Below are positions 21,760-44,455 of a stretch of DNA of 64,000 nucleotides, in pieces; the stretch's first letter is position 1, and each line of letters opens with the position of its first letter. Below the pieces are notes generated by a model. That model was not told the origin of the DNA. It saw nothing but the letters and a program-made list of their open reading frames with translations, and made no database searches. The translations under genes and the position numbers were made by a program. Origin of the DNA: Candidatus Wolframiiraptor sinensis (GTDB lineage: Archaea; Thermoproteota; Nitrososphaeria_A; Caldarchaeales; Wolframiiraptoraceae); NCBI GenBank assembly GCA_023261815.1, contig JALNKA010000001.1, forward strand, positions 97,347-161,346, given 5' to 3'.

Positions 21760-23058
21760 TCATTCATTGATTATCCTCAGCTTGATAACGTGGACTGAGC
21801 ACGAGATGCATGGATCATAGTTCCTTATCGTCATCTCCACAATCCGCTGCGCAGTCTCCGGCGGCCCTTTCACGATCAGATCCCCAACCTTGAATATGTC
21901 CTCCTCCATCGCCATGTAGTTCTGGGTTGTCGGCGGGATGATGTTCGCGTAAACTATTCTGCCCAGCTCATCTATCCTGTAGCGGCGATAAAGCATCCCC
22001 CTTGGAGCCTCGACTATCGCCGCCGCCTCACCAGCCCTCACCCTCGCATCAACGTATGGCGTCTGCGGCTCGGAGTACTCCTCAACGAGCCTCCCAACCT
22101 CGATTATCGAGTGAAGATTCTCGGCGGCCCTCGCAACGATGCTCTGATAAGTATTCTTGAGCGGAGCCCTATAGCCCGCCGCCTCGAGAACATCTCTAAC
22201 CTCGGGTGCTAGGAGGTCATAGTTTAGGTTGAATCTCGCGATGGGGCCCGTGATGTAGGGCTTGCCGTTCCTCAGCCTGTAATGGAGCCCATTCGAGTAC
22301 ATCTTTTGCTCGACGGTGATGTTCTCCTCGAAGGAGTCCTCGGGAAACTCCCAGCCAAGATTATTCGCGACCAATCCCTCAAGTATCGGATATTCCTTTC
22401 TGCCTTTCAGGGACATTAGTGTCATGTCGTACTGGATGTCAGGCAGATCCATGTTGAGCACGAATTCCAAGAGCTCTTCCCCCTTCCTCCTGATCTCCTC
22501 ATAGTTGCGTGATAATGGCTCAAGCTCCTCCTTTCTGATGATCCTATAGAGCCCTCCAATCCTGAAGCCTATCGGATGGATTGCTCTGCCGCCGATTATC
22601 TCTATTGCTCTATTGCCCCAGTCCCTTACGGCGATCGCGTTCCTGACGAGGTTGGGGTAATCCTTCGCCATCTCGAGCGCCGAGTGATATCCGAGGAAGT
22701 CCGGCGCATGGAGGAAGGCGAAGTGCAGGACATGACTCTCAATCCACTCGCCGTAAAAGGCTATTTTTCTCAGCACCTGTATCTCCTCCGGGACATTTAT
22801 CTCGAGTATCTTCTCCATGGCCCTGCAAGCAGCGAAGATATAGGCCAGCGGGCATATCCCGCAGATCCTCGCCGTTATATCAGGCGCCTCAAGATATGAT
22901 CTTCCACGGAGAAATGCCTCGAAGAATCTGGGAGGCTCGAATATATTGACCTCGACGTAGTCTATCTTGCCGTTCTTCACTCTTACCCAGACTCCTCCTT
23001 CGCCCTCGACCCTCGCCAGCTGGCTGACTTTTATCTCGAAGCTCTTATCCCCGCTCAT
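21760..23058 (-). CDS. hydA: sulfhydrogenase (group 3b [NiFe] hydrogenase) alpha / large subunit
   Basis: RICGICP at the N-terminus and DPCISCSVH at the C-terminus, which are the Ni-Fe ligand motifs. Confidence 0.85.
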   Translation of the reverse strand: MSGDKSFEIKVSQLARVEGEGGVWVRVKNGKIDYVEVNIFEPPRFFEAFLRGRSYLEAPDITARICGICPLAYIFAACRAMEKILEINVPEEIQVLRKIAFYGEWIESHVLHFAFLHAPDFLGYHSALEMAKDYPNLVRNAIAVRDWGNRAIEIIGGRAIHPIGFRIGGLYRIIRKEELEPLSRNYEEIRRKGEELLEFVLNMDLPDIQYDMTLMSLKGRKEYPILEGLVANNLGWEFPEDSFEENITVEQKMYSNGLHYRLRNGKPYITGPIARFNLNYDLLAPEVRDVLEAAGYRAPLKNTYQSIVARAAENLHSIIEVGRLVEEYSEPQTPYVDARVRAGEAAAIVEAPRGMLYRRYRIDELGRIVYANIIPPTTQNYMAMEEDIFKVGDLIVKGPPETAQRIVEMTIRNYDPCISCSVHVIKLRIINE

Positions 23059-23830
23059 ACCTCTCTAGGAACCTCCTTAAGGGCTCAGACCAGCTACTAA
23101 AATTCCTCAACTTGAGGATGACCTCCTCCCTTGGAAGCCCGATCTCCTCGAATCCCCTAGCGAGCGCCTCGGGCTTCGGGTCGATCATCGGGCCAAAGCA
23201 CCCATAGCATCCGCGAGCATAACTTGGGCAGAGGGCGCCGCATCCCTCAACCATTATCGGCCCGAGGCATGGTGTGCCTCGTGACACCATCACGCAGACA
23301 TTTCCCCTGCGCTTGCATTCTTGGCATAGGCTCTCGAGCCTGTGATAGGGCCTCTTCCCGACAAGCACCTGCTTCAAGACGCTCAGGAGCTGGAGCCTAT
23401 TAACTGGGCAGCCGCTGACCTGATAATCCACCTTAATGTGCTCGGATATCGGGGTGGTCTTATCAAGGCTGTTAATCCACTCGGGCCTGGGGTAAACTTG
23501 TCTGACGACATCCCCATGATCCATCCAGTTTCTCAGCGACTGAGGCCCGCCATGGACTGCGCAGGTGCCTATCGGGATCACGATCTTCGAGTTTCTCCTG
23601 ATGCTCTTTACAACCTCCATCTCGTGGGGCGTTGGGATCGATCCCTCGATTAAAGCGACATCATAGGGCCCTGGATCAATCCTGCTGCTGGCCTCGAGGA
23701 AATACGCGATCTCGACCTTCTCAATTATCGAGAGCAGGTCTTCTCCTAGGTTTATCAGCTCATCTTGGCATCCGCTGCATGAAGAGAATTTGAAGACCGC
23801 CAGCCTCAGCTTTCCACCATTCCTGCTCAT
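23045..23830 (-). CDS. hydD: sulfhydrogenase delta / [NiFe] small subunit
   Basis: SCSGCQ, GTCA and GCP cluster-binding motifs. Confidence 0.8.
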   Translation of the reverse strand: MSRNGGKLRLAVFKFSSCSGCQDELINLGEDLLSIIEKVEIAYFLEASSRIDPGPYDVALIEGSIPTPHEMEVVKSIRRNSKIVIPIGTCAVHGGPQSLRNWMDHGDVVRQVYPRPEWINSLDKTTPISEHIKVDYQVSGCPVNRLQLLSVLKQVLVGKRPYHRLESLCQECKRRGNVCVMVSRGTPCLGPIMVEGCGALCPSYARGCYGCFGPMIDPKPEALARGFEEIGLPREEVILKLRNFSSWSEPLRRFLERYERG

Positions 23831-23833
23831 ATC

Positions 23834-24661
23834 TCATCCACCCAGAAGTATTTTTTTAATGAGCCAGTACGGGAACACGGGTCCATTCTTGCGAACGAAG
23901 TAGGGGCCCACCTGGCAGTGGCCGCATAGACCGACTCCGCATTTCATCCTCCTCTCCAGGGAGAGGTAGATTTGATTCTCCTTAAACCCGACTTCCTCGA
24001 GGGCCTTGACCGTGAAACGCATCATTATCTCGGGGCCGCAAACGAGCGCAATAGTCTTTTCAATATTTATCCTAGCCATGGGTATGAGCTCGGTGACGAC
24101 GCCGACGTTATCCCTCCAAGTTTCATCGGGGTGATCAACCGTTAGCAGGAACTCTGTGTTCGGTATCTCCCTATATCGGTCGAACTCATAGCGGTAGAGA
24201 AGGAGGTTAGGCGTCCTCGCACCATAAAGTATGGTGAGCTTACCATATTTTTCTCGGTTTTTCTCGATCTCCAAAATGACCCCCCGGAGTGGAGCTAGCC
24301 CAATCCCGCCGGCCACTATGAGAACATCCTTTCCCACAAGCCTCTCAAGAGGCCAGCCCTTGCCATAAGGCCCCCTTAGGCCCACAATACTTCCCTCGCT
24401 CAGCTTAAACAGGTAATCTGTTAGGGCGCCCACGGACCTCACCGTCTGGACTATGATCCCGCCCTCTTCGCAGCCGCAGATGGAGACCGGTGTCTCGCCT
24501 ACGCCGGGAACATAAATCTCCGTGAATTGTCCGGGTTTAGGCTGCTCCACGAGCCCCCCATGAACTCTGAAGTAAAAGGTCTTGGTATCCGGCGTCTCCG
24601 GCACAACCTTAACTATCTCGGCTCTGCCAGGCGCCATGAGGGTTCTAACTATCTCTTGCAC
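23834..24661 (-). CDS. hydG: sulfhydrogenase gamma subunit (FAD/NAD(P)-binding with 2Fe-2S, PyrK-like)
   Basis: PyrK-like fold ending in a C-terminal CGVGLCGHC motif. GTG start. Confidence 0.8.
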   Translation of the reverse strand: MQEIVRTLMAPGRAEIVKVVPETPDTKTFYFRVHGGLVEQPKPGQFTEIYVPGVGETPVSICGCEEGGIIVQTVRSVGALTDYLFKLSEGSIVGLRGPYGKGWPLERLVGKDVLIVAGGIGLAPLRGVILEIEKNREKYGKLTILYGARTPNLLLYRYEFDRYREIPNTEFLLTVDHPDETWRDNVGVVTELIPMARINIEKTIALVCGPEIMMRFTVKALEEVGFKENQIYLSLERRMKCGVGLCGHCQVGPYFVRKNGPVFPYWLIKKILLGG

Positions 24662-25739
24662 CTCGTCTCCACCTCCTTAACCACATCTCTCACAACCTGC
24701 CTGACATCTATTCCCGCGGGGCACCACGTTATACATCTGCCGCACCCCACGCAGCCGAACGTTCCAAATTGCCTAAGCCAGTACACGAACTTGTGAAGAA
24801 CCCAGTGCCTATACCTAGCATAGAGACTTTTCCTGAAATGTCCTCCCGCAACCTGCGCGTAGCTGTAGCTGTGGCATCCATCTCAGATTCTAATACGTTT
24901 CGCCGATCCATCGAGCTCCGGCTCATCGAGCACGTCGAAGCAGAAGCACGTGGGGCAGACCATGTTGCAGTTCGCGCAGCCGAAGCATTTCTCAGCAGTC
25001 TTCCTGTAAACCTCAGAATTCATCCCTATCTCAAGGGTTTCAGGGAGGTTTTCCAGCGTGAACTCAACTCGAGCTCTCTTGGACGCCTCCAGCATGAGTT
25101 CCTTAAACCGGTCAACCTGCTCATCCTCAGCCGGCCTGAGATTAAGCTCGCTGAGAACATCCACGCCAAGATCGCTTCCCGGCTGAAAGATGACGACGCC
25201 ATCGCCAATTCTGGTGTAGGCTATGTCAAATCCCTTGAACGCGAAGGGGCCGGTGCCCATGGTCGCGCAAAAACAAGTCCCGCCGGGCTCTACGCAGTTC
25301 TCAACTATGAGGAGCAGGTCCTTCCTAACTTTTCTGTAATACTCGTCTCCCAGCTCGCCTTGAACACCATCCATAATGCTTATCGCGGCGAGATCGCAGG
25401 GCTTTATGCCGAAGAAAGCCGTCTTAACAAACTCTAAGCTCGGGTACTCCACGCTCAGATCAGGCTTGATGACGAATAGGAGAAGCTCGGGGGGATATAG
25501 GAATCTCTTCGGCGAGTCCGGGCCGTTCCTGAACCTGCCACCATTATTGGCGACGCGATAATATCCGGGAGCCTGCTCATCCCCATAGCCGTAAGTAATC
25601 TCGTCAATGTCTCGAGCCTAATAGCTGAATCCACGAGCTTAGGCCCTATAACCCGATAACCCCTAGAAGTCACAGCCTTAAATAGCGCCCTAAGCTCATA
25701 CTCTATTCCAGAGTAAATCGGCCCACGAAACAACACTTG
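24649..25739 (-). pseudogene. hydB: sulfhydrogenase beta subunit HydB, with a 1-nt deletion near 25607-25616 and an in-frame TGA (24873-24875) at a conserved Trp position
   Basis: Frame A reads continuously as YRVANNGGRFRNGPDSPKRFLYPPELLLFVIKPDLSVEYPSLEF...CPTCFCFDV...RIRI-TGA-DGCHS...HWVLHKF...GCVGCGRCITWCPAGIDVRQV, ending at stop 24649. The N-terminal 45 aa (MLFRGPIY...SAIRLE) are in a different frame. Confidence 0.65.
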
Positions 25740-27037: not shown

Positions 27038-27080
27038 CCTCTTGATACTTATCCGATGTTCTCGGATAAGTATCAAGAGG
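27038..27080. promoter_or_regulatory. perfect 19-bp inverted repeat with a 5-nt spacer (CCTCTTGATACTTATCCGA-TGTTC-TCGGATAAGTATCAAGAGG)
   Basis: Read directly from the sequence. It sits at the 5' end of the nuoE-like gene, just downstream of an AT-rich divergent promoter region (TAGATATATGATATATATCGA). Confidence 0.7.
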
Positions 27081-27485
27081 AACGGGGAAAGGAATTCGGC
27101 GAATCTTATCGAGTCTTTGCAAAAGCTGCAGGAGAGATATGGGTTCTTGCCGAAGGACGCTCTAATGAAGCTTTCCAAGGATGTGGGAGCTCCTTTGAGC
27201 AGGATATTCGGCGTCGCGACTTTCTATCACCAGTTTAAGCTGGAGTCGCCTGGAAAAGTCCTGATCTCGGTTTGCATGGGAACAGCATGCCATCTTAGGG
27301 GCGATGCCAACAACTACGAGTTCCTGAGGAGGTTTTTAAGAATAGCACCAGGCAAATCCGTCAGCGATGATGGCCTATTCTCCTTAGAGAAGGCTAGGTG
27401 CTTCGGCTGCTGTAGCCTGGCCCCAGTAGTGAGAGTTGGCGATAAGCTCATCGGCAAGGCCACGCCCAGGAGCTTCAGAGAATAA
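27042..27485 (+). CDS. NuoE/HoxE/HydC-like thioredoxin-fold [2Fe-2S] protein; the start is uncertain
   Basis: GVATFYHQF...CMGTACHLRG...CFGCCSLAPV motifs. The annotated TTG start lies inside the palindrome. An alternative ATG at 27056 in another frame gives a NuoE-like MFSDKYQEERGKEF start, which would need a frameshift. Confidence 0.7.
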   Translation: MILIRCSRISIKRNGERNSANLIESLQKLQERYGFLPKDALMKLSKDVGAPLSRIFGVATFYHQFKLESPGKVLISVCMGTACHLRGDANNYEFLRRFLRIAPGKSVSDDGLFSLEKARCFGCCSLAPVVRVGDKLIGKATPRSFRE

Positions 27486-27549
27486 TCTCCCAGGTAAGGG
27501 AGTCGATCTTGAGGGAGGAGACTGTTCGCGGAGCTGGAGGCGATAAAAC

Positions 27550-29523
27550 ATGATGAGACAGGAGTATTGGACGCTAATGGATCCATGCTGCGATTACTGC
27601 CTTCATTCGGCGAGCAATCCTTGCGTGAAGTATGTTGTCTGCCGGGTGCGCGGGCCATTCTGTCACAAGAGCGTGATGTGCAGGAATAGGAGGCAGCAGA
27701 GGATCAAGAAGGTGCTCTATGGTCCGCAGGGCGTTAGAATCAATGTCGGCGCGTCGAGTTGCGGCTTGGCCGCTGGGGCTGAGAAGGTTCTCGAAGCGGT
27801 GAAGGATAATCTCAGGTCTATGGGTGTGGAGGCGGAAGCCTCTGCAGTGGGCTACCTGGGATTATGCTTCATGGAGCCCTTCATCGAGATACGCAGCGAG
27901 GATGGCCCCTCCCCGATTTACGGCCATGTATCCCCGGATAATGTTGGTGAAATATTTGCAAAGTATTTTGAGGAGGGTAGCGTGGATGGCGCATTTGAGA
28001 TCAGAAGGCGCACAGGCAGATTCAAGGACGAGGATAAGGTTCCATTACTTGATGAGCTCGATGTATGGAGGAAGCAGGTAAAATGGGTTTCTAGGAACTG
28101 CGGAGTGATTAACCCGGAGTCGATTGAGGAGTACATCGTCTCGGGCGGATATGAGGGGCGCTCGAGAGCGCTAATGATGAAACCCGAGGAGGTTATAGAG
28201 GAGATCAGGTTATCGGGGCTTAGAGGCAGGGGCGGAGCCGGATTCCCAACCTGGCTCAAGTGGAAGGTGTGCCGAGAGCAGCCATCTAAGGAGAAGTACA
28301 TCATCTGTAATGCCGATGAAGGGGATCCGGGAGCTTTCATGAATAGGCTGCTCGCGGAGTCCGATCCACATAGAGTTCTGGAGGGCCTCATAATTGCCGG
28401 CTACGCGATAGGAGCCTCTCATGGCGTGATATTCGTTAGGGCTGAGAAACCCCTCATGGCCGCCAGACTCGAGAAGGCCGTGGAAGATGCTCGCAGATGG
28501 GGCCTCTTGGGTGAGAACATTCTAGGGACTGGATTCAATTTCGACGTGAGGGTGATGAGGAGCGCCGGCGCATTCGTATGTGGAGAGGAGACGGCGATGA
28601 TAGCGGCCATAGAGGGGAGGCGGGCGATGCCTAGGCAGAGGCCTCCCTACCCGGCTTCGAAGGGTCTCTGGGATAAGCCGACGGTAGTCAATAATGTCGA
28701 GACGCTGGCACACGTCGCGACGATAATGGCTCATGGATGGCAGGAGTTCGCGAAGTACGGCACCGAGCGGAGTAGGGGGACGAAGATGTTCTGCGTAACC
28801 GGTGGCGTGAAGAGAACTGGTGCATTCGAGGTCCCCATAGGAACCACCATCAGAACCCTCGTGTGCGATATAGCTGGAGGGCCGCATGAGGGCAGGAAGA
28901 TAAAGGCGGTCCAGATAGGCGGCCCATCAGGCGGCTGCCTCCCGGAGAGGCTATTCGATCTGCCCATCGATTATGAGAGCCTCCAAGAGGCCGGCGCGAT
29001 AATGGGCTCCGGGGGATTGGTCGTGATAGACGACTCCAATTGCATGGTTGATGTCGCCAGATACTTCACGTCATTCACGCTGGCGGAGTCATGCGGCAAA
29101 TGCGTGCCATGTAGAACAGGCACGAAGACCCTGTATGATCGCTTATCAGCCATAGTTGAGGGGCTGGGCGATCCAGATGATCTGCGGCTGCTGGAAGAGG
29201 TTGGAACGATGATGAAGGATGCGGCCCTATGCGCACTGGGCGGAACAGCGCCCAATCCGATACTATCCTCGCTCAAGTACTTCAAAGACGAGTATGAGGA
29301 GCATATAGTGGGGAAGAGGTGCCCGGCGAAGGTTTGCAGCAAGCTCGTGACATACAATATAAACAGAGAGCTTTGCGTCAAGTGCGGGTTATGCGCTAAA
29401 TCATGCCCAGCAAACGCGATAATTAAAACCGACGATGGATTCTTCGCGGTTGATCAGCATAAGTGCATCAAGTGCGGCACATGCTTCATCACATGCCCGA
29501 GGGACGCTGTTGAGAAGAGGTGA
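27550..29523 (+). CDS. NuoF/HoxF/HydB-like NAD(P)H-binding flavoprotein with an N-terminal Trx-like domain and C-terminal 2x[4Fe-4S]
   Basis: GLRGRGGAGFPT (NADH), the FMN and N3 cluster region (ESCGKCVPCR), and C-terminal CVKCGLCAKSCP / CIKCGTCFITCP. The true start may instead be ATG 27676. Confidence 0.85.
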   Translation: MMRQEYWTLMDPCCDYCLHSASNPCVKYVVCRVRGPFCHKSVMCRNRRQQRIKKVLYGPQGVRINVGASSCGLAAGAEKVLEAVKDNLRSMGVEAEASAVGYLGLCFMEPFIEIRSEDGPSPIYGHVSPDNVGEIFAKYFEEGSVDGAFEIRRRTGRFKDEDKVPLLDELDVWRKQVKWVSRNCGVINPESIEEYIVSGGYEGRSRALMMKPEEVIEEIRLSGLRGRGGAGFPTWLKWKVCREQPSKEKYIICNADEGDPGAFMNRLLAESDPHRVLEGLIIAGYAIGASHGVIFVRAEKPLMAARLEKAVEDARRWGLLGENILGTGFNFDVRVMRSAGAFVCGEETAMIAAIEGRRAMPRQRPPYPASKGLWDKPTVVNNVETLAHVATIMAHGWQEFAKYGTERSRGTKMFCVTGGVKRTGAFEVPIGTTIRTLVCDIAGGPHEGRKIKAVQIGGPSGGCLPERLFDLPIDYESLQEAGAIMGSGGLVVIDDSNCMVDVARYFTSFTLAESCGKCVPCRTGTKTLYDRLSAIVEGLGDPDDLRLLEEVGTMMKDAALCALGGTAPNPILSSLKYFKDEYEEHIVGKRCPAKVCSKLVTYNINRELCVKCGLCAKSCPANAIIKTDDGFFAVDQHKCIKCGTCFITCPRDAVEKR

Positions 29524-29529
29524 TGTTGG

Positions 29530-30147
29530 ATGAAGATCAAGATAAACGGATTGGAGGTTGAGGCCAAGGAGGGCGAGAGAATACTCGATGTAGCTGATCG
29601 CCTAGGAATCAGGATACCAACCTTATGTTATCTCAGGGGCATATATGAGGGTGCCTCCTGCAGGATATGCGTCGTCGAGCTGAATAATGGGAAGCTCATA
29701 CCTGCATGCGCATACGAAGTATCCGACGGCCTCGTGCTCAGCACGGATACTCCTAGGATTAGAGAGAGCAGGCGCCTAACCCTGGAGCTGCTGCTCTCCG
29801 CCCATAGAATCTCATGCCAAGATTGCCCCAAGAAGGGAGAATGCGCCCTAGTAGAGTTATGCTCAGAGTACGGCGTCGAGGGGATACCGGTCTGCGCCGA
29901 ATGCTCCCTCCACGAAGAGGACTGCTTCCTCGGGAGAGGCGAGATCTGCTTGGGCCCGATCACAATCAGCGGCTGCAAAGCTGAATGTATTCGTGATGGA
30001 AAGCCGTGCGAGGGATGTAGGGGCCCCGTCACTAGGAGAGACGTGTTAGAGCGGGGTCGAGCAATATACCTCGAGCATGGCATACCGCTTGAAATGTTCT
30101 CGAGAAGCTCAAGATCTACTGCGCCTCCTCACGCGAATTCGATCTAA
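29530..30147 (+). CDS. HydA/NuoG/HoxU N-terminal-type iron-sulfur protein (2Fe-2S ferredoxin plus His-ligated 4Fe-4S) as a stand-alone 205-aa protein
   Basis: C33-x10-C44-x2-C47-x12-C60, then H92-x3-C-x2-C-x5-C, then a non-canonical 8-Cys segment. Confidence 0.7.
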   Translation: MKIKINGLEVEAKEGERILDVADRLGIRIPTLCYLRGIYEGASCRICVVELNNGKLIPACAYEVSDGLVLSTDTPRIRESRRLTLELLLSAHRISCQDCPKKGECALVELCSEYGVEGIPVCAECSLHEEDCFLGRGEICLGPITISGCKAECIRDGKPCEGCRGPVTRRDVLERGRAIYLEHGIPLEMFSRSSRSTAPPHANSI

Positions 30148-30184
30148 TTCGTGAACGCCTCATGGTGAGTGAGGTGATCGAGAA

Positions 30185-31474
30185 ATGATGAGCATCTCGG
30201 GTATTGATAGGATAGTGGGCCACGCCACCCTGGACGTGGATATCGATGGAGGAGCGCTGAATGCGCGTTTCAAGGTACTGAATGATCCGCGTTTCATAGA
30301 GGCCATAGTGATCGGCAAGAAGTACCATGAAATTCCGTCAATCGTTTCGAGGATATGCGGGCCTTGCAGCGTCAGCCACACGATAACCGCCATAATGGCC
30401 GTGGAGAAAGCTCTCGGGATAAGCGTCCCCGAGCCCGTGAAGATCCTCAGGAAGATAGCCGTGCTCGGAGAGGTGGCAGAAAATCACCTACTGCATCTCA
30501 CGCTCGTCGTCATGCCGGAATACTTTGGATACGATGATCTTCTCGAGGTCGCGAAGTACAAGCCCGAATCCCTCAGGAAGATACTGCTCATCAGATCCCA
30601 GCTTTCCAAGGTGATGGAAATGATATCAGGGAGGCTCGTCCACCCAAGCGCGCTATCAATAGGCGGGTTCACGAGAATGCCTGGAGAAGCGAGGCTCGAG
30701 GATGCAAAGAGCATCTTGAAGGAGATCAAAAGCAGGATAAGCGAGATCGTAGAGCTATTCCTCGAGACGGAGTTCCCCGAGTTTGAGGTATTAATGGAGG
30801 CCTGTGCATCCCTCAAGGACGGCTACCTCTACATCGGCGATGAGATCATCACCTCAGATGAGCGCGAGGTTAGAGCCGAGGACTATAAGAGAATATTCAT
30901 AGAGGATGTACAGCCTTACACAACTTCAAAGAGCGTAACGCTCGAGGGAATGCCAGTATACGTTGGGCCTAGGGCCAAGGTAAACTTGAAAGCGGACCTG
31001 CTTTCAGATCAGGCTAAGTCTTATCTCAAAATGAGGAGCTTCCCCCTGAGAAGCCCGTTCGATAATCTCCGGGCGCAAGCCATCGAGCTAATTCACTGCA
31101 TAGATGCCATGCAGATGTTGATCGAGGATGTGGCGAGCATTTCCAGCATAGGATCCGAGCAGAGAGAATCTAGGATCATGGCCAGAGAGGGGGCTGGAGT
31201 TGGCGTGTCCGAAGCTCCACGCGGCCTACTAATACACCATTACGAGTTTAATCGATGGGGGAATGTCATCTACGCAAATGTGATAACGCCGACGACGATA
31301 AACTCCAGGCACGTGGAGGTCGCCGCCCTAGAATTAATCAGGCACTACTTCTACGAGGACATGCCGGTCAAAGAGATAGAGCGCTATCTAAGAAAGCTCG
31401 TGCAAGCGTTTGACCCGTGCCTAGGCTGCGCAACCCACTCCGTCAAGATAAACATCAGGGGGCTCAAGCCATGA
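30185..31474 (+). CDS. [NiFe] hydrogenase large subunit (group 3, HoxH-like)
   Basis: RICGPCSVSH (L1) and DPCLGCATH (L2) ligand motifs; 429 aa. Confidence 0.85.
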   Translation: MMSISGIDRIVGHATLDVDIDGGALNARFKVLNDPRFIEAIVIGKKYHEIPSIVSRICGPCSVSHTITAIMAVEKALGISVPEPVKILRKIAVLGEVAENHLLHLTLVVMPEYFGYDDLLEVAKYKPESLRKILLIRSQLSKVMEMISGRLVHPSALSIGGFTRMPGEARLEDAKSILKEIKSRISEIVELFLETEFPEFEVLMEACASLKDGYLYIGDEIITSDEREVRAEDYKRIFIEDVQPYTTSKSVTLEGMPVYVGPRAKVNLKADLLSDQAKSYLKMRSFPLRSPFDNLRAQAIELIHCIDAMQMLIEDVASISSIGSEQRESRIMAREGAGVGVSEAPRGLLIHHYEFNRWGNVIYANVITPTTINSRHVEVAALELIRHYFYEDMPVKEIERYLRKLVQAFDPCLGCATHSVKINIRGLKP

Positions 31475-32859
31475 GAATCGGGATTTACTCGTTCGGCGGA
31501 TGTGAGGGCTGCAGATACTGGCTAATAGACTCCCTTCTGAGGATATGCGGGGAGCTGGGCGCCGAGATAGCCTACGAGCCGCTCATAGGCCTCTCCAAGG
31601 AAAGCCCGGAATACGATGCGGTGGTAATCGAAGGGGCTGTTTGCACGGAGGAGGATCTCGAGAAGATTCGAGGTCTGAGATCGCGGGCGAAATACGTCAT
31701 AGCCCTGGGGTCATGCGCCCTTCTAGGCGGGGTGCCGGGCAATAAGAGGTTCGCGGACCAGCATGCTGTTGAAAGAGTTTACCTCGGCAAACCTCTGCCG
31801 AAAAAGCCCCTCGACGTGAAGCCCGCAATCGCTCATGTGCGAGTGGACTACTGGATTAGAGGCTGCCCCCCGAACCGGGAAAACTTTGAGAAAGTCTTTC
31901 GAGCGATAATCTCCGGTATAGCCTCCGGAGAGCCGTTCAAGCTCCATGAGAGGCGCATAGAGTTCTGCAGGGATGAGTTCGCCAAGATCGAGGGAAGCGT
32001 GCTCAGGCTCGATGGAGACAAGTGCATAGTCTGCGGGAGATGCGTGGGCGTATGCGAGAAAATGGGAGTCTACGCGATAGACTTCGCCTACAGGAGCGTG
32101 AGCACGATGGTGACAACGCCCTTCGAGCTGCCATTCGATGAGAGCGCGTGCGTGCTATGCGGCCAGTGCGCGCTGGTCTGCCCGGTCGGCGCCATGCGCG
32201 AGAGAAGCGACTTGGAGAAGGTTCAGAGAATGCTGGCCAAGCCCACGGCGTTGAAGGCGTACATCGAGCCGGAGAGCCTGGCGGCCATGTCCAGCTACTT
32301 CAACCGCGAGGTTGAGGTAATAGTCGGAGCATTACTCGCGAGGGGCTTCGAGAGCGTCGCGATGTACGTGCCGGAGCCCCGCGCCGATGCCGATAAGCCG
32401 CTGATCCCCATGAGCGAAGCTGAGCGGAGGTTCGTCAACCTGCTTCATCCCGGGTTGGCTGAGAAGCTCTCGGATCCCCCAGCTCTGCCAATCGGCTCAT
32501 CAGTCCTGATAACACCATGTCTGGCCAAGAAGGCGCAGGCACGCGAGGGGGTGGTCTTAACGACGCGGGAGGCGATCAAGCTCATCTCCAGCGTGGACTT
32601 GGATGAGGTTGATGAGGTCTCGCCGATAACGCCCGCCAAGATGGGCGGAGCCTACGGGGAAGTTCATGGACCGGATGCCGTGATCAGGTTCTTGGATGAA
32701 TGCGCCGAGGGGCTGAGCGTCAGGGAGCCGACAGTGCTGAAAATATGTCCCGGCGGATGCATCAGAGGTGGTGGGCAGCCATATTACAGCGAGGACCTGT
32801 ATCGGAGGATGAGCAAGGCGGCGGCGAAGATATCCTCCGCGCTCATGGCCGTCGGCTAA
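31471..32859 (+). CDS. [NiFe] hydrogenase small subunit (HoxY-like) fused to a 2x[4Fe-4S] ferredoxin and a reduced, Cys-depleted [FeFe]-hydrogenase H-domain-like C-terminus
   Basis: MRIGIYSFGGCEGC...GSCA...GCPP (proximal cluster). Then CIVCGRCVGVCE and CVLCGQCALVCPVG. Then EKVQRMLAKPTALKAYIEP..., ITPCLAKK (L2-like), VVLTTRE and ICPGGCIRGGGQP (L3-like). There is no cysteine where the L1 TSCCPGW motif is expected. Confidence 0.8.
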   Translation: MRIGIYSFGGCEGCRYWLIDSLLRICGELGAEIAYEPLIGLSKESPEYDAVVIEGAVCTEEDLEKIRGLRSRAKYVIALGSCALLGGVPGNKRFADQHAVERVYLGKPLPKKPLDVKPAIAHVRVDYWIRGCPPNRENFEKVFRAIISGIASGEPFKLHERRIEFCRDEFAKIEGSVLRLDGDKCIVCGRCVGVCEKMGVYAIDFAYRSVSTMVTTPFELPFDESACVLCGQCALVCPVGAMRERSDLEKVQRMLAKPTALKAYIEPESLAAMSSYFNREVEVIVGALLARGFESVAMYVPEPRADADKPLIPMSEAERRFVNLLHPGLAEKLSDPPALPIGSSVLITPCLAKKAQAREGVVLTTREAIKLISSVDLDEVDEVSPITPAKMGGAYGEVHGPDAVIRFLDECAEGLSVREPTVLKICPGGCIRGGGQPYYSEDLYRRMSKAAAKISSALMAVG

Positions 32860-33350
32860 GAGGGCCGCGAAAAGTTCGATGGATTGCGCTTGAGGAATCG
32901 GGATACTTCCTCCAAAATTTTTGGGATTGCTTTCTCCACCTCAACGCTCAATTTTATTCCCGGGCTTATGTCCTTGACCCCCACGCCGATCAAGAAGATC
33001 CTTCGGGGCATTTTCTCCCCGAATAGCTCATAGCCCAGCTTTATGGCCGAGACCACATCGATGTCATGCAGCGATTGGATCTCATCCATGGATCCTTGAG
33101 TGAGTTCCCCTAGATCGATCACGACAACCTCTCCGGGGGCTAGTCCCGATTTTATGGAATCTATTATCACCACTTCATCGAACTCCATGATCTCATCGAG
33201 TAGCGCGAAGACGTTTGAGCCGCTCTCGAAGATTCTCACCTCGGCGGGCATCTCGCGCTCGAGCAGGATCTCGCCCACGATTAAGCCGACAGCATCATCG
33301 CCCATCAGCCTGCTGCCAACGCATAGGATTAAAGTCCTTTGAGCCCCCAT
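32856..33350 (-). CDS. hydrogenase maturation endopeptidase (HycI/HoxW family)
   Basis: The ILCVGSRLMGDDAVG motif typical of hydrogenase C-terminal proteases. Confidence 0.8.
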   Translation of the reverse strand: MGAQRTLILCVGSRLMGDDAVGLIVGEILLEREMPAEVRIFESGSNVFALLDEIMEFDEVVIIDSIKSGLAPGEVVVIDLGELTQGSMDEIQSLHDIDVVSAIKLGYELFGEKMPRRIFLIGVGVKDISPGIKLSVEVEKAIPKILEEVSRFLKRNPSNFSRPS

Positions 33351-33409: not shown

Positions 33410-34474
33410 CTAGCAGATTCTCGGAATCGGGTCTCCAATGGGCATCGGCAGATACCTTAATCCGCCTATCTCGGTCTCGACCACGACGCCCTCATGCTCG
33501 CCCGAGAACCACCCTATGATCTCGGCCTCGCGGCCCATCGGGTGGGATCGAAGAGCTTCCAGAACATCTTCCGCGAACTTCTCGGAGACCGCTAAGACCA
33601 CTCTTCCCTCGCATGCCAGTTCAAGGGGGTCTATGCCGAGTATCTCGCAGCCGGTTCTCACCTCATCGCGGATCGGTATGAGTGCCTCTTTAACCAAGAT
33701 GCCGAAGCCCGTGGCCTCGCTCCACTCGTTTAGAAGCGCCGCCAACCCTCCTCTCGTTGGATCCTTCGCCGCTAGGACTCCTCCAGCCTCGAGAGCCCTC
33801 TCCATTAGGTGGTTTAATGGCGCGGTGTCGGATCTTAGGCCCGGCGCCTCGAAGCCAAGCTCACCCCTCGCGGCTATTATCGTCATTGCGTGATCTCCGA
33901 TGGGCCCTGAAACTATCAGCCTATCTCCCGGTTTTATATTTCGTGGATCAAGCCACCTCGATCTCAGGGACCTGCCATCAGATGCCGCCTTCTCCAAGTT
34001 CTTGTCCAGATGCGGGCTTCTCCTCCCGATGCCGGCCGTATTGATTATCATCTCATCGAGCTTTCCCCTCTCGACGACCTTCGTGTCTCCTGTCACGATC
34101 TCGACTCCCGCCTCCTCGGCAGCCTCCTCCATGCTCGATAATATTCTATCGAGCTTCTCGATCTCGAATCCTTCCTCGATCACGAGGGCGCATGAGATCG
34201 CCAGCGGCTCGCTCCCGATCACGGAGAGGTCGTTCACGGTCCCTGAGATGCTCAGCCTCCCGATATCCCCTCCGGGGAAGAAGAGGGGCTTAACCGTGTA
34301 TGAGTCTGTCGTGAAGGCTATTCCGTTGACCACGGCTGAGTCCGTGAGAAGCGTAAGAGGGATTTCAACGCTTCTCCTCTGCTTGAACCTCGGTAGAATG
34401 TGCTCCTTGATGAGCTTGTGCATGTATAGGCCGCCAGCACCATGCGCTATGCTTATCTTCTCATCCGCCTTCAC
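33410..34474 (-). CDS. hypE: hydrogenase maturation protein HypE
   Basis: AIR-synthase-related fold ending in the conserved C-terminal PRIC. Confidence 0.9.
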   Translation of the reverse strand: MKADEKISIAHGAGGLYMHKLIKEHILPRFKQRRSVEIPLTLLTDSAVVNGIAFTTDSYTVKPLFFPGGDIGRLSISGTVNDLSVIGSEPLAISCALVIEEGFEIEKLDRILSSMEEAAEEAGVEIVTGDTKVVERGKLDEMIINTAGIGRRSPHLDKNLEKAASDGRSLRSRWLDPRNIKPGDRLIVSGPIGDHAMTIIAARGELGFEAPGLRSDTAPLNHLMERALEAGGVLAAKDPTRGGLAALLNEWSEATGFGILVKEALIPIRDEVRTGCEILGIDPLELACEGRVVLAVSEKFAEDVLEALRSHPMGREAEIIGWFSGEHEGVVVETEIGGLRYLPMPIGDPIPRIC

Positions 34475-34496
34475 CAGCGAAGCCCACCCCCAAACC

Positions 34497-35675
34497 TCAT
34501 AACCTCCTTACATATTTTGTTCCATGATTTATCCTGCATGCTTCACTCATACACCTGAAATCCTTGACGAGAATCCTGTTCTGCGCCCAGATCCTGCATG
34601 TTCCCTCAAGCCCCACCATCGGTGGGCCGATCGGGGTTGATGGCGTGCACGCCTTCATGTATAACGGGCAGTCCGGTGGATTTATTATCCCCTTTATTAT
34701 CTCGGCGCATCTGGCCTCTTGCGGGAAGTAGTCTCCCCCACCGCGCTCTAGCCCGTAAACCCGCCTCGCGTCGTCCTGGGAGAACTTCTCCTTGAGATTC
34801 ATCGCGCTCGCGGGTATGATCGCGACCCCCCTCCAGTAGCCATCCTCGAAATCGAAGACCTCTTGTAGCGCTTTCTGCGCCTTCAGGTTTCCTTCCCACG
34901 TCACGGATCTCACGTACTCGTTTTCCATTCTCGGAACATTCTCCCTCAACTGCTTGAGGATCATGTATATGGCTACAAGGACATCTATGGGCTCGAATCC
35001 CGCGAAGACCATGGGCTTCCCGCACTTATCGAAGTACGGCTTATACGCCCTCATGCCGCTCACGGTCGAGGCATGGCCTGGGTTTATGAAAGCATCTATC
35101 TCGAGATCCTCAGATTCGGCTAGAAACCCCACCGCCGGCGGAACATACCTATGAGCCGAGAGAACCTTAAGATTTCTCGGAAGGCCTTTCAGAATATAGT
35201 ACGCTACTGTGGGCGCAGTCGTCTCGAATCCAGCTCCCAAGAAGACGTACTCGCTATCAGGATTGCTGCTGGCGATCCTAACGGCGTCCATGAAGCTGTA
35301 CACGACCCCGACCTTCCCTCCATCGGCCGCGCAGTCCTCGAGCGAGATCATCCTCGAGCCCTTTGCCCTCGACACGTCGCCGTATGTGAGGACGTTGATT
35401 CCATCTAGTGCGAGCTTCACCGCCACGTCTATATCAGATGCGGGGGTTATGCAGACGGGGCACCCGGGTCCACCCCTAACCTCGATATTATCCGGGAGGA
35501 GAGCCCTAATACCCCAGTGAGTTATAGTCCATTCATGAGTTCCGCACACGTGCATTATCCTTATCTTTGGAAGATCCCTCGCGAGATCCCAAATCCTCGC
35601 GACTAACTTTCTAGCTAGAGCCGGGTCCCTATATCTCGAGAGAACGGCTTTCATGGGATCGGCGGAATCCACCAT
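34497..35675 (-). CDS. hypD: hydrogenase maturation protein HypD
   Basis: CGTHE and GPGCPVC motifs. Confidence 0.9.
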   Translation of the reverse strand: MVDSADPMKAVLSRYRDPALARKLVARIWDLARDLPKIRIMHVCGTHEWTITHWGIRALLPDNIEVRGGPGCPVCITPASDIDVAVKLALDGINVLTYGDVSRAKGSRMISLEDCAADGGKVGVVYSFMDAVRIASSNPDSEYVFLGAGFETTAPTVAYYILKGLPRNLKVLSAHRYVPPAVGFLAESEDLEIDAFINPGHASTVSGMRAYKPYFDKCGKPMVFAGFEPIDVLVAIYMILKQLRENVPRMENEYVRSVTWEGNLKAQKALQEVFDFEDGYWRGVAIIPASAMNLKEKFSQDDARRVYGLERGGGDYFPQEARCAEIIKGIINPPDCPLYMKACTPSTPIGPPMVGLEGTCRIWAQNRILVKDFRCMSEACRINHGTKYVRRL

Positions 35676-35760
35676 TCCTAATCACGCAGTCATACTAACT
35701 TGGGCGCAGCGATAATAAAGGTTTAACCCTCAGCTTTCTCATGATTTAGCGGGCTCCTAG

Positions 35761-36252
35761 ATGAGCTGGAGGGAGAGGCTCGAGCAGATCCTCAACAGCG
35801 TATCGGTGAGCGGCGGAGACCTGGTTATCGTCGGGATAGGAAACACGCTTCGCGGAGATGATGGAGTTGGAGTCGAGCTCGCAAGAATCCTGAAAGAGTC
35901 CATGAAGAGCGAGCGCGCAAAAGTATTCATCGTGGAGGATAAAGTTGACCTAATTCCGAAAATGCTGAGGGATGTGAATCCCGGGATCATTCTGCTCTTG
36001 GATGCGGCGGACTTCGGAGGCAGGCCAGGAGAGATCAGAATCATGAAGCTTGAGGAAGCCTCGAGAAAAGCCATCTCGACGCATGAACTGCCCCTAGACC
36101 TTATCATGAAAGCAGCCGGAATAAGCGCACCGGCATACGTCCTAGGAATACAAGTTGAAAACCTAGAATTTGGAAAGGAAGTGAGCCCCCAAGTTAAGGC
36201 AGCGGCGAATGAGGTTGCGAGCCTCCTATTAAAGCTCGTGGTGAGCTTGTGA
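35761..36252 (+). CDS. hydrogenase maturation endopeptidase (HycI family), second copy
   Basis: GIGNTLRGDDGVG motif. Lies immediately upstream of the group-4 hydrogenase cluster. Confidence 0.8.
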   Translation: MSWRERLEQILNSVSVSGGDLVIVGIGNTLRGDDGVGVELARILKESMKSERAKVFIVEDKVDLIPKMLRDVNPGIILLLDAADFGGRPGEIRIMKLEEASRKAISTHELPLDLIMKAAGISAPAYVLGIQVENLEFGKEVSPQVKAAANEVASLLLKLVVSL

Positions 36253-36329: not shown

Positions 36330-36659
36330 ATGGAGGAGCTCATCATCGCGCTTACCGTAACATTTCTTGTGATCCTCCTCATTTATCTCTTAGGCGGCAG
36401 GTTATCCGTTAAGGCTCCTAAAAGCAGGATGAAGCTCGAGCCCTATGCTTGCGGGGAGAGCCTTCCCCCGGCTAGAAGTCCGATAAGGCTACTCTTTTTC
36501 AACTTTGCCGCGCTATTCCTAGTATTCGATGTCATCGCCCTCTTCCTGGCATTCACGATAAATATTCCGCCAGCATATAAGCCCGGAGTAATCAGCCTTC
36601 TCATGCTTTACATGCTCGTGCTCGGGATCGCGATCCAGCTCCTGGGAAGAAGGAGGTGA
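36330..36659 (+). CDS. NuoA/ND3-like membrane subunit
   Basis: Three TM helices and the LEPYACGE motif. Confidence 0.75.
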   Translation: MEELIIALTVTFLVILLIYLLGGRLSVKAPKSRMKLEPYACGESLPPARSPIRLLFFNFAALFLVFDVIALFLAFTINIPPAYKPGVISLLMLYMLVLGIAIQLLGRRR

Positions 36660-36666
36660 ATGCCAT

Positions 36667-37107
36667 TTGGGCCTTGTCGAGAAGCTCGTGAGAAAATGTA
36701 GGGCGAGAAGCCCTTGGATACTCCTATTCGATACCGGAGCATGCAATGCATGCGATATAGAGATCGCCGCTTGCCTCACACCGCGCTATGATGTCGAGAG
36801 ATTCGGGGTTCTCGCGAAAGGCAGCCCTAGGCACGCGGACATACTCGTCATTACCGGGCCCGTTACCAGGCAGGTCAGGGATAGGCTCATTAGGATCTAT
36901 GAGCAAATGCCGGAGCCGAAGTACGTGGTCGCCGCAGGCACCTGCGCTACAAGCGGCGGGGTATACTGGGGGTGCTACAATACGTATCCGAGCCTTGACT
37001 CCGTCATTCCGGTTCATGCGTATGTCTCGGGTTGCCCAGTGAAGCCTGAGGCGATTCTGAGGGCGATCAGCGTGCTCGTCGAGAAGATCGAGAAGGGGGA
37101 GGCTTAA
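36667..37107 (+). CDS. NuoB/PSST-like (group-4 hydrogenase small subunit type)
   Basis: DTGACNACDIE, GTCATSGG and GCPVKPE cluster N2/proximal-cluster motifs. Confidence 0.85.
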   Translation: MGLVEKLVRKCRARSPWILLFDTGACNACDIEIAACLTPRYDVERFGVLAKGSPRHADILVITGPVTRQVRDRLIRIYEQMPEPKYVVAAGTCATSGGVYWGCYNTYPSLDSVIPVHAYVSGCPVKPEAILRAISVLVEKIEKGEA

Positions 37108-37108
37108 G

Positions 37109-37579
37109 TTGAGCGAGGAGGGTCTTCTCAGAAAGATTACTGAGAGATTTGGAGATAAGATAATTGAAGCTAAGGTTCTCGGGAAGAGAAGGGTCTCCAT
37201 CCTAGTTTCTCCTGATGCTTACAAGGATGTCGTGAGATATGCCGCCCAAGATCTCGGCTTGGAGTTTCTCAGCTGCCTGAGTGGGGTTGATCGGGGAGAT
37301 AGCCTTGAGGTCGTGGTGCACTTGGGATACTCGATGCACGTGCTCATCAAAACCCGCGTCTCTAAGGATGATCCAGCCGTGGACTCGATAACCGATATTC
37401 TCCCAGCCGCGAGCCTCTACGAACGGGAAATACATGATCTGCTGGGCATCGCATTCAAGGGCCACCCGAATCTCAAGAGGATCTTCTTGCCCGAGGATTG
37501 GCCCGAAGGAGTTTACCCGCTTAGGAAGGATTACTCTCCAGAGCATCCAAAGCCATTGAGGGGTGGTGAGGCCGTGTGA
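37109..37579 (+). CDS. NuoC (30 kDa)-like subunit
   Basis: NuoC fold (ERExHDLLGIxFxGHP). Confidence 0.8.
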   Translation: MSEEGLLRKITERFGDKIIEAKVLGKRRVSILVSPDAYKDVVRYAAQDLGLEFLSCLSGVDRGDSLEVVVHLGYSMHVLIKTRVSKDDPAVDSITDILPAASLYEREIHDLLGIAFKGHPNLKRIFLPEDWPEGVYPLRKDYSPEHPKPLRGGEAV

Positions 37580-38769
37580 ACTTCGAGGTTCCGATAGGCC
37601 CCCAGCACCCAATACACGTCGAGCCCCTGATGCTCAGGCTGAAGGTCGAGGGGGAGCTGATAGTAGACGCCGACGTAGATGTCAGCTATATTCATAGGGG
37701 CATCGAGAAGGCTCTCGAGCTCAGGCCATATATTCAGGGACTCTACCTCGTTGAAAGAATATGCGGCATATGCAATGCCGCTCAATCGCTCTGCTACTGC
37801 CTCAATGTCGAGCAGCTTCTCGGCAAGGAGGCTCCCCCTAGGGCGAGGTATCTCAGGATCGTGGTGGAGGAGCTTAGCAGGATTCACAGCCACCTCCTCT
37901 GGCTCGGCCACTACCTCCACACGCTGGGATTTGAGACCCTCTTCATGTACTTCTGGAGGGATAGGGAGAGGGTAATGGACATGCTGGAGCTCATCACGGG
38001 TAATAGAGTCACCACGGCCTATAACACGATAGGCGGAGTGAGGAGGGATCTGCCTCCGGGTGCGGAGCAGAAGCTCAGGAGAACATTGGATTACATCGAG
38101 GAGAGAGTGCGCTACTATGAGAAGGTGATAGACTCGGAGCCGACCATCCTCGCGAGAACTCAGCGGGTTGGGATCCTCAAGCCGGGAGATGCGGTGAGAA
38201 TGGGCGTCACGGGCCCGCACCTAAGAGCCTCAGGAATAAAGCACGATGTCAGGCTCGATGACCCGTATAGCGGGCATGATGAAATCCCGTTCAACGTCAT
38301 CACGTGGGACACGTGCGATTGCTACGCCAGAGTGAAGGTTAGGCTCAGGGAAACCAGCGAATGCGTGAACATGATACGCTATGCTCTCGATCACATGCCA
38401 TCCGGCGACTATAGGCTGAAGATCCCGCCGTTCTTCAAAGCCCCTCCCGGGGAGTCGTTATCGAGGGTTGAGGCGCCGAGGGGCGAGCTCGTCCATTACT
38501 CGATCTCGGATGGCGGTGATAGGCCATACAGGTATAGGGTTAGGACGCCGACGCTCGCGAACCTCCTATCCGTAGTAGAGATGCTCAGGAGCAGGGGCGA
38601 CTACGAGGTCTACATAGCCGATGTCCCGGCGATCCTCGGCGGAATAGATCCATGCATATGCTGCAGCGCGAGGATCTTGATCACCGACGAGGCCAAGAAA
38701 AGGAGGATGATCACGACGCTCGACGACATCATAAGATTCTCGCGCGGAAGGAGGGTTGAGAGAAGATGA
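37576..38769 (+). CDS. NuoD-like / group-4 [NiFe] hydrogenase large subunit with Ni-Fe ligand cysteines retained
   Basis: ERICGIC near residue 61 and DPCICCSAR near 38647-38673. Both Cys pairs that true NuoD has lost are present here. Confidence 0.8.
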   Translation: MNFEVPIGPQHPIHVEPLMLRLKVEGELIVDADVDVSYIHRGIEKALELRPYIQGLYLVERICGICNAAQSLCYCLNVEQLLGKEAPPRARYLRIVVEELSRIHSHLLWLGHYLHTLGFETLFMYFWRDRERVMDMLELITGNRVTTAYNTIGGVRRDLPPGAEQKLRRTLDYIEERVRYYEKVIDSEPTILARTQRVGILKPGDAVRMGVTGPHLRASGIKHDVRLDDPYSGHDEIPFNVITWDTCDCYARVKVRLRETSECVNMIRYALDHMPSGDYRLKIPPFFKAPPGESLSRVEAPRGELVHYSISDGGDRPYRYRVRTPTLANLLSVVEMLRSRGDYEVYIADVPAILGGIDPCICCSARILITDEAKKRRMITTLDDIIRFSRGRRVERR

Positions 38770-39731
38770 TCGAGAAGATCCTTGCCACGGTATTCTTCCC
38801 CGGAGCAATCTTCATACTGGCGGTCTCGCTCTTTTACGAGTGGGTTGATAGAAAGCTGTATGCGAGGTTCCAGAACAGGGTTGGCCCCCATCTGGCGGGC
38901 CCCTTTGGGCTCTTCCAGCCGATCGCGGACCTCATCAAGCTACTCTCGAAGGAAGATATCGTTCCAATGGCCACCGATAGGTTCCTCTTCACGCTGACGC
39001 CGATTCTAGCTCCAGCCCTGATCCTCTTCGCCTGCATGTTCCTGCCAGTGGCCGGGCCATCCGGCATAATCTCGTTTGAGGGAGACCTGATAGCAGTGAT
39101 AGCACTTCTCTCGATCTATACGATAACGGTGTATCTCGCCGGCGAGGGCTCGAATAACAGGTTCGCCTCTGTGGGCGCTGTCAGGGCCGCTGTCCAGCTG
39201 CTGGGCTACGAGATACCGCTGACGCTCAGCCTCCTGAGCGTGGCCTTAGCCGCGGGCTCGCTGAGTATTCGCGGAATAGTTGAGGCTCAGGCAGAGAGAG
39301 GTCTCTGGTTCATCGCCGGAATACAGGCAATAGGTTTCGCAATCTTCATCATTGCATCGCAGGCCGAGATGGAGAGGATACCATTCGATATACCGGAGGC
39401 CGAACAAGAGATAGTCGCCGGGTGGGAGGTCGAGTACTCCGGGAAAAGGCTTGCATTATTCAGGCTCTCAAAGGATCTCGAGCTATTCCTCCTCTCGGGG
39501 CTCGGCGCCGCGGTATTCCTGGGAGGCCCAATAGGCCCGGTGATACCGGGGCTCGAGCCGATGCTCTACACAATCTACTTCATCCTGAAGTCCATAATAG
39601 TCCTCGCGATATTCACTTTGGTCAGGGCCCTTTTCGCGAGGCTCAGGATCGATCAAATGGTCTCCTTCTCATGGAGGTATCTCATGCCCCCGGCCATGAT
39701 TCTCATAATCCTGACGGAGGTGATCATGTAG
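38766..39731 (+). CDS. NuoH/ND1-like membrane subunit
   Basis: Eight-TM NuoH pattern ([14 protein letters not shown]). Confidence 0.85.
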
Positions 39732-39733
39732 GG

Positions 39734-40084
39734 ATGAAGGTTCCCGGGCGCCTAGTGGCGGAGGCCCTGAAAAGCTTGTTCAGGAGAAGGGCCACGATTC
39801 TCTACCCATACAGGGAGCTCGACAAAGTTCATCTACCCGAGGGATTCAGGGGAAGAATAGAGTTCGATCGCTCGAAGTGCATCGGGTGCCAGCTCTGCTT
39901 CAGGGTCTGTCCCGCGAAGGCCATCGAGATCGTAGATGATGAGAAGGGAAAGAGGCCGATCTTCTACATCTACAGGTGCATATACTGCGCTCAGTGCGCC
40001 GAGGTCTGCCCGACCAAGGCGATAAGCATGAGCAAGATCTTCGAGAACATCGCCCTAAGAAAGGAGGACATGGTGGTGAGATGA
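39734..40084 (+). CDS. NuoI (TYKY)-like 2x[4Fe-4S] subunit
   Basis: [12 protein letters not shown] and [12 protein letters not shown] motifs. ATG at 39734 directly after the nuoH stop. Confidence 0.85.
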
Positions 40085-40326
40085 TGGAAGCAGTTCTCCA
40101 CATAGCGATGATAGCGCTCACACTCGTCTTCGCGATAATGGCCGCCGAGCTGAAGGACATGATGAAAGCCGTGCTCGCGTTCATGTGCGCGAACATAACC
40201 ATGGCCGCGATATTCTACCTCCTTGGAGCGCCATACCTCAGTGTTTTCCAGCTGCTAGTGTACGCGGGCGCGGTCACGATACTCCTTCTAGCAACGATAC
40301 ATGCTGGCGAGGAGAGGGGTGACTGA
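40081..40326 (+). CDS. NuoJ/ND6-like N-terminal half (3 TM)
   Basis: Small hydrophobic protein in the NuoJ position. Its ATG overlaps the nuoI stop. Confidence 0.5.
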
Positions 40327-40327
40327 G

Positions 40328-44452: not shown

Positions 44453-44455
44453 AAA

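Follow-up and report, generated by a model that had tools for sequence, protein, structure and literature searches.

The window, i.e., the whole 64,000-nt stretch of DNA analysed here, carries a hydrogenase operon with the gene order hydC-hydB-hydD-hyhL-hyhS::hydA (27042-32859), in which hydD has the neighbours expected of a gene of this family (Table 1). The reading frame under study, present at 29530..30147 and translating to the 205 aa quoted in the preliminary description, should properly run from 29530 to 30188 with one frameshift, and very likely encodes HydD, the conduit subunit of an archaeal hybrid hydrogenase.

Table 1. Positions of the hydrogenase genes of the window and of the features of hydD
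Feature	Position	Strand	Remarks
Group 3b [NiFe]-hydrogenase large subunit	21760-23058	-	
Group 3b small subunit, unsplit	23045..23830	-	261 aa; Oxidored_q6; same eight Cys in cis at 168-214; internal reference
Group 3b gamma subunit	23834-24661	-	
hydC, NuoE-like, 2Fe-2S_thioredx	27042..27485	+	Pfam; cut by indels relative to L001
hydB, NuoF-like: Complex1_51K, SLBB, NADH_4Fe-4S, 2x Fer4	27550..29523	+	Pfam
hydD ORF as read in the window, 205 aa	29530..30147	+	Last 17 codons out of frame
[2Fe-2S] ligands C33, C44, C47, C60	29626..29709	+	Fer2_4 domain, residues 2-74; invariant in all orthologues covering the region
His-ligated [4Fe-4S] motif H92-x3-C96-x2-C99-x5-C105	29803..29844	+	NADH-G_4Fe-4S_3, residues 81-118; invariant in 93/93
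Small-subunit C-terminal-like domain, part still in frame (residues 115-188)	29872..30093	+	
Eight-Cys segment C122, C125, C132, C140, C149, C153, C160, C163	29893..30018	+	Two [4Fe-4S] predicted, equivalent to medial and distal clusters of [NiFe] small subunit
1-nt deletion relative to L001, shifting the frame	30094..30096	+	Alignment to L001
Genuine C-terminal helices of HydD (shifted frame; VLEKLKIYCASSREFDLIRERLMVSEVIEK, then stop)	30096..30188	+	Stop overlaps hyhL ATG
hyhL, group 3 [NiFe]-hydrogenase large subunit, ShyA-like	30185..31474	+	Pfam, NCBIfam
hyhS::hydA fusion, 462 aa from ATG: small-subunit N-domain with proximal-cluster fold, HydA F-cluster 2x[4Fe-4S], H-domain-like tail	31471..32859	+	
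HycI-type [NiFe] maturation protease	32856..33350	-	Pfam

Other hydrogenase-related genes surround this operon. Upstream, on the opposite strand, lies a second, canonical [NiFe] operon of group 3b (sulfhydrogenase type, 21760..25736), whose beta subunit gene is split by a 10-nt deletion. Downstream, hypE and hypD are found within 33410..36252 (their domains, AIRS in the case of hypE, being read from the counterparts on the L001 contig described below), together with a second HycI-type protease gene (35761-36252). They are followed at 36330..45940 by a complex I-like membrane module with NuoA-like, NuoB-like (Oxidored_q6), NuoD-like (Complex1_49kDa) and NuoH-like subunits and three antiporter-like subunits; no NuoEFG genes were seen in the stretch of this module that was examined.

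The first ~120 residues of HydD are readily recognised. Pfam finds Fer2_4 (8.7e-16) and NADH-G_4Fe-4S_3 (1e-9) there, and both ligand motifs, the [2Fe-2S] one with the spacing C33-x10-C44-x2-C47-x12-C60 and the His-ligated [4Fe-4S] one, read exactly as the preliminary description gave them; another cysteine, C111, varies among orthologues, unlike those of the motifs. The best PDB matches of this region are HydA1 (7q4v residues 6-129, aligned to HydD 3-125, 1.1e-25) and HoxU (5xf9_B, 8e-12), and residues 4-119 also match the HydA of Acetomicrobium mobile (7t2r_A) at 1.8e-20. The region thus corresponds, as had been proposed, to the first two modules of HydA, NuoG (Nqo3) and HoxU, with identical ligand spacing. 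Unlike these proteins, HydD does not continue into a 2x[4Fe-4S] ferredoxin domain, which is encoded in the fusion gene instead. HydD is not a HoxU: no Fer4-family domain matches it in Pfam at E<0.01, and the NCBIfam HoxU model covers only 6-124 of its 238 positions, with 96.6 bits against a cutoff of 333. After residue 118 no Pfam model matches at all, leaving residues 119-205 blank.

This blank region contains the peptide CAECSLHEEDCFLGRGEICLGPITISGCKAECIRDGKPCEGC, with eight cysteines. The preliminary description placed them correctly at residues 122-163, while its spacing (x5 and x8 on either side of C132) was off by one on each side: the true pattern is C-x2-C-x6-C-x7-C-x8-C-x3-C-x6-C-x2-C, and not one beginning x2-x5-x8. 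The proposed check on orthologues gave a clear answer, as all eight cysteines, like the ligands of the His cluster, are invariant in 93/93 of them, down to 39% identity (BLASTP table). They are also nearly invariant in 94 more distant relatives, a pattern that far exceeds chance. When the C-terminal 91 aa alone are compared to the PDB, the matches are exclusively [NiFe]-hydrogenase small subunits, with all eight cysteines aligned to cysteines. The best is the delta subunit of P. furiosus sulfhydrogenase I (9nez_A residues 161-211, 5.6e-10; also 9e15 and 9e1j), and further matches are MvhG/VhuG of the F420-non-reducing hydrogenase (9sw2_E, 5odc_E, 9sfi_I). NCBIfam likewise returns ShyD (1e-13, model positions 158-209 of 240), HydD(delta) (2.8e-10) and VhuG (1.6e-5), and the group 3b small subunit encoded in the window itself aligns to the segment with 38% identity (E 2e-9) and 8/8 cysteines matched. 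HydD shares with SHI delta (9E15/9NEZ) and MvhG (5ODC) not only the register of the eight cysteines, but also the conserved CLGP.T..GC and C.GC.G and the trailing helices. Judged by this homology, the eight-Cys stretch is nothing other than the Fe-S domain with which small subunits of group 3b/3c [NiFe] hydrogenases normally end. It is however detached in HydD from the Oxidored_q6, proximal-cluster N-domain and placed after the 2Fe-2S and His-[4Fe-4S] module.

[quoted passage not shown] By analogy with these homologues, the clusters of the HydD C-domain would be of the [4Fe-4S] rather than the [3Fe-4S] type. As for the ligands, motif comparison with group 1 small subunits leads us to assume, tentatively, that C122/C125/C132/C153 hold the distal and C140/C149/C160/C163 the medial cluster. 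A HydD of ~220 aa would then have conserved ligand sets of 4 + 4 + 8, i.e., sixteen ligands, predicted to suffice for four Fe-S clusters.

The copy of hydD in the window is affected by a frameshift. HydD orthologues are 215-235 aa long, not 205, and the closest database protein (P0001) has 219 aa, is 99% identical over 92% of the query and ends in …GIPLETVLEKLKIYCASSREFDLIRERLMVSEVIEK. The contig bearing P0001 (L001, GCA_038831345.1 JAWBKT010000004.1) matches the window at 97.7% identity along 9.1 kb, has the same gene order and served as the reference for indels. Relative to it, one base is missing from the window at 30095/30096 (GAAACAGTT -> GAAAT-GTT), as a result of which the last 17 residues of the 205-aa ORF (MFSRSSRSTAPPHANSI) are wrong, being read out of frame. 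Reading from 30096 recovers the tail of the orthologues, with a stop at 30186-30188, so that in all ~31 C-terminal residues, which form helices, are replaced; if real, the frameshift could impair the folding of the second HydD module. Other indels of the window relative to L001 lie at 23851, 25596, 26256, 26962 and 27469 (the last in hydC); they comprise single-base changes and one of 10 nt, and the genes broken are hydC, hydD, the sulfhydrogenase beta-subunit gene and a PhoU-family gene.

The frameshift and these further frame-breaking indels would fit a small-subunit-derived domain that no longer serves as a two-cluster relay, having kept one cluster, a [3Fe-4S] or only a role as a structural clamp, or else a copy that is a pseudogene. 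We regard this as improbable. The eight cysteines are invariant across Nitrososphaerota, Bathyarchaeia, Thermoproteales/Thermofilaceae, Desulfurococcales, Sulfolobales, Thermoplasmata and Hadarchaeota, which argues for selection on full ligand sets, and five contigs, which come from one NCBI genome assembly and from three or more sequencing runs, carry intact 219-aa copies of HydD that are 99% identical. As hydC is interrupted as well, this particular copy of the operon could be decaying; mis-sequencing is more likely, and the indels of the window are probably sequencing or assembly errors rather than gene decay, because most of the single-base ones are changes in homopolymer length, typical of sequencing error.

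The wider family of the domain bears on whether the site is peculiar to this lineage. An exhaustive HMMER search, in which the 74-aa domain was run against 1.8 billion representatives, found 412 relatives, and 94 of these were scanned for domains. Oxidored_q6 was present in 86 of the 94, with the match generally at ~140-235 of proteins of ~220-280 aa, i.e., in ordinary small subunits, and the combination of Fer2_4 and NADH-G was found in only four. Some long relatives (P0125, P0128, P0223 and others) are small subunits with C-terminal extensions or a small::large fusion. The preliminary description had suggested a non-canonical, lineage-specific Fe-S or Zn site, and a site of this kind, arisen in the lineage with no counterpart in known families, would agree with the absence of any Pfam model on residues 119-205 and with a spacing that is neither CxxCxxCxxxCP nor rubredoxin-like, neither pattern indeed occurring in the segment. 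It is nonetheless highly improbable, since solved small subunits match significantly and align at all eight cysteines, and since 86 of the 94 relatives scanned are ordinary small subunits. Moreover, the Pfam region is blank because Oxidored_q6 models the N-domain only, and searching PDB and NCBIfam with the segment alone dispels the impression of novelty. An Fe-S nature for the site, as first suggested, is very probably right given the small-subunit homology; Zn finds no support, nor does a rubredoxin or zinc-ribbon identity (two CxxC knuckles, a small beta-hairpin and one metal). Likewise, HydD is not a complete small subunit: it has no Oxidored_q6 and is a fragment homologue.

The missing small-subunit half is found in the fusion protein. 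Oxidored_q6, absent from HydD, is present at its residues 1-142, which align to residues 4-146 of P. furiosus SHI delta and to residues 8-158 of the small subunit encoded in the window. Further on, residues 154/174-290 of the fusion align to HydA 112/135-254 (174-290 corresponding to HydA1 135-254), covering the 2x[4Fe-4S] F-domain and the first part of the H-domain. The ferredoxin segment taken alone matches HydA1 (8a6t residues 139-214, 1e-21), TmHydA (136-210) and CpI (139-216), which confirms that the small-subunit fusion, the second gene downstream of hydD, encodes the two canonical ferredoxin clusters. An FrhG-like origin was considered for this domain, as 6qii_G aligns over residues 2-257 and the C-domain of FrhG is of the ferredoxin type; it was rejected, since the segment matches HydA at the canonical position and FrhG is absent among the 60 matches listed (weakest E ~7e-5). 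That the eight-Cys segment of HydD might itself be an ordinary bacterial-type 2x[4Fe-4S] ferredoxin domain, the third module of HoxU, NuoG and HydA, made odd by insertions or mis-alignment (a possibility that the preliminary description had raised against itself), can be dismissed: eight cysteines would suit two [4Fe-4S] clusters and the ferredoxin domain of HoxU also follows the His-cluster module, but the segment has no Fer4 match at E<0.01, no pair of CxxCxxCxxxC(P) motifs and no ferredoxin fold, its PDB matches are all small subunits, and the true HydA-type ferredoxin domain is found in the fusion gene.

These alignments place a break in HydA at ~125-135 and one in the small subunit at ~146-168, with the four pieces recombined crosswise: HydD consists of the N-terminal part of HydA and the C-terminal part of the small subunit, and the fusion protein of the N-terminal part of the small subunit and the C-terminal part of HydA.

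The tail of the fusion protein resembles the H-domain of [FeFe] hydrogenases, although Pfam Fe_hyd_lg_C gives no match to it at E<0.01. It keeps the cysteines of P2 (TPCLAKK) and P3 (CPGGCxxGGGQP). P1, which reads TSC[CS]PGW in [FeFe] hydrogenases, is replaced in window-type tails by P-x-S-E-A-E, which is conserved and has no cysteine, and ~20-25 residues are deleted after it. The P1 region was compared in the window gene, its orthologues P0269-P0305 and loci L044, L055, L056, L061, L065 and L073. In the window fusion the segment reads P-M-S-E-A-E, without cysteine, and it has none in all 37 close orthologues (P0269-P0305) either; some of these Thermoproteota/Nitrososphaerota-type fusions have only three cysteines in the whole H-domain. 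The Thermoplasmata-type fusions retain a cysteine at P1 (S-W-C; TSWCP or LSWCK), as read from loci other than UBA147, whose contig stops short of the fusion gene. A verdict of degeneracy drawn from the Cys-less P1 had to be softened: enzymes of the HydABC type (e.g., 7q4v) read TSCSPGW, with a serine in the column of CpI C300, and window-type fusions have a conserved serine in that same column.

A scan of one genome per species yielded 78 hydD loci, and synteny was assessed over 82 (the 78 representative genomes plus four contigs with a near-identical gene). Wherever the flanks are present, hydB precedes hydD, which has hyhL, the fusion gene or both as neighbours. The nearest HydD proteins are those of Ca. 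Wolframiiraptor gerlachensis (86%) and W. allenii (83%), in the Nitrososphaerota; other carriers are Thermofilaceae/Thermoproteales, Desulfurococcales, Sulfolobales MAGs, Bathyarchaeia, Thermoplasmata, Hadarchaeota and UBA147 (locus L071). There are two gene orders, hydC-hydB-hydD-hyhL-fusion, as in the window, and fusion-hydC-hydB(long)-hydD-hyhL, in the Thermoplasmata. In six Bathyarchaeia loci (L013, L017, L018, L020, L021 and L026), the fusion gene directly follows hydD with no hyhL between them; in L018, genes for a large and a small subunit lie just downstream on the opposite strand. Public names of the orthologues ("2Fe-2S iron-sulfur cluster-binding protein", "ferredoxin" or "YjgC-like" in the BLASTP table) are uninformative and the C-terminal half is blank in Pfam, which gives the present assignment some value for annotation.

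Greening et al. (Cell 2024, PMC11216029) have already described the family and its four-cluster status, under the name HydD, in hybrid hydrogenases that combine group F [FeFe] with group 3f [NiFe], so that the eight-Cys stretch is explained and not new. HydD is presented there as a NuoG-like conduit subunit with four iron-sulfur clusters, and the window shares with that system the same five genes (hydC, hydB, hydD, hyhL and hyhS::hydA), a HydD of 215-235 aa with sixteen ligands and, in UBA147, the exemplar genome of the paper, a 39%-identical HydD. Differences concern the gene order just mentioned and HydB, which has 657 aa in the window versus ~1,060 aa in Thermoplasmata loci; inspection by eye and the paper (PMC11216029) indicate that the N-terminal region of the UBA147 copy resembles glutamate synthase. 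The nearest named species also differs, being here a Ca. Wolframiiraptor (Nitrososphaerota), and no Nitrososphaeria or Caldarchaeales are named in the text of PMC11216029. The methods of that paper list 7T2R chain A and 5ODC chain E (MvhG) as cofactor templates for HydD; since the latter is MvhG, Greening et al. implicitly used a small-subunit template for it. A term search of the main text finds no statement that the C-terminal half of HydD is the missing half of the small subunit. The same work assigns three [4Fe-4S] clusters of the NiFe component to the fusion protein (PMC11216029), and our alignments suggest that these are one proximal and two HydA-type F-clusters. UBA147 itself (Methanomassiliicoccales archaeon, DAJR01000043.1) has hydB-hydD-hyhL, followed ~500 bp later by a 648-aa fused sulfhydrogenase beta/gamma-like gene, and a complete 257-aa small subunit with the eight-Cys block; its contig begins inside hydB.

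Another point of comparison is the electron-bifurcating HydABCSL of Acetomicrobium mobile (7T2R), which likewise combines a NuoE/NuoF/NuoG-like module with group 3 [NiFe] large and small subunits. In contrast to the window system, its small subunit is short (179 aa, N-domain only) and its HydA a single long chain resembling NuoG. The 91-aa query matched no 7T2R chain, so that a small-subunit C-domain was not seen on the A. mobile conduit protein.

How the pieces would work together can be proposed from these homologies. Module 1 of HydD (residues 1-120) is a detached HydA/NuoG-type N-terminus, predicted to carry one [2Fe-2S] and one His/Cys3 [4Fe-4S] cluster. The eight invariant cysteines of module 2 would ligate two [4Fe-4S] clusters that correspond to the medial and the distal one, the type, number and ligand assignment of these clusters being those predicted from homologues. 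The fusion protein holds the complementary halves, one being the N-domain of the small subunit, where the proximal cluster would sit, and the other HydA from the 2x[4Fe-4S] F-domain on. In the presumed docking geometry, module 2 would pack on the small-subunit N-domain of the fusion and on HyhL, completing a proximal-medial-distal wire from the Ni-Fe site, while module 1 would rejoin the HydA F-clusters and link them to the NuoF/NuoE-like HydB and HydC, whichever way electrons are presumed to flow. HydD, with four clusters, would in this manner physically interlock two hydrogenase-derived halves.

A more specific reading, which we put forward tentatively and consider possible rather than probable, is that of a reciprocal swap at the gene level, in place of a plain fusion of the small subunit to HydA: hydA would have been interrupted between its His-cluster and F-cluster modules by the C-half of the small-subunit gene, hyhL and the N-half of the small-subunit gene, in this order, each wire then needing both polypeptides. 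Were this so, the three [4Fe-4S] clusters attributed to the NiFe component in the 2024 paper (PMC11216029) would be one proximal cluster and the two HydA F-clusters, with the true medial and distal clusters on HydD. Window-type complexes, whose P1 is without any cysteine, may then be [NiFe]-only bifurcating hydrogenases on a fossil HydA scaffold, in which case the small-subunit module of HydD would be the sole productive entry wire.

The eight-Cys stretch in itself matters little: the Fe-S domain is a known one, and its family has been named and credited with four clusters before. If HydD and the fusion protein are recognised as carrying one half of the small subunit each, the origin assumed for the electron wires from the Ni-Fe site changes, as does their route, and such a split would explain why hydD, hyhL and the fusion gene constantly travel together. 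What remains of interest is that the split can be read explicitly as reciprocal and that P1 of the window-type H-domain has no cysteine.

Finally, operons of the Thermoplasmata type were also seen in MAGs named Balneolales, Balneolaceae, Cyclonatronaceae, Gemmatimonadales, Nealsonbacteria and Gammaproteobacteria, mostly from soda-lake sediment (L049, L054, L060, L062, L064, L066, L068, L077, L078, L079 and L081). Their occurrence under bacterial names suggests mis-binning or lateral transfer. Four of these loci (L064, L066, L068 and L077) have a second hydB-hydD(-small-subunit-like) set downstream.
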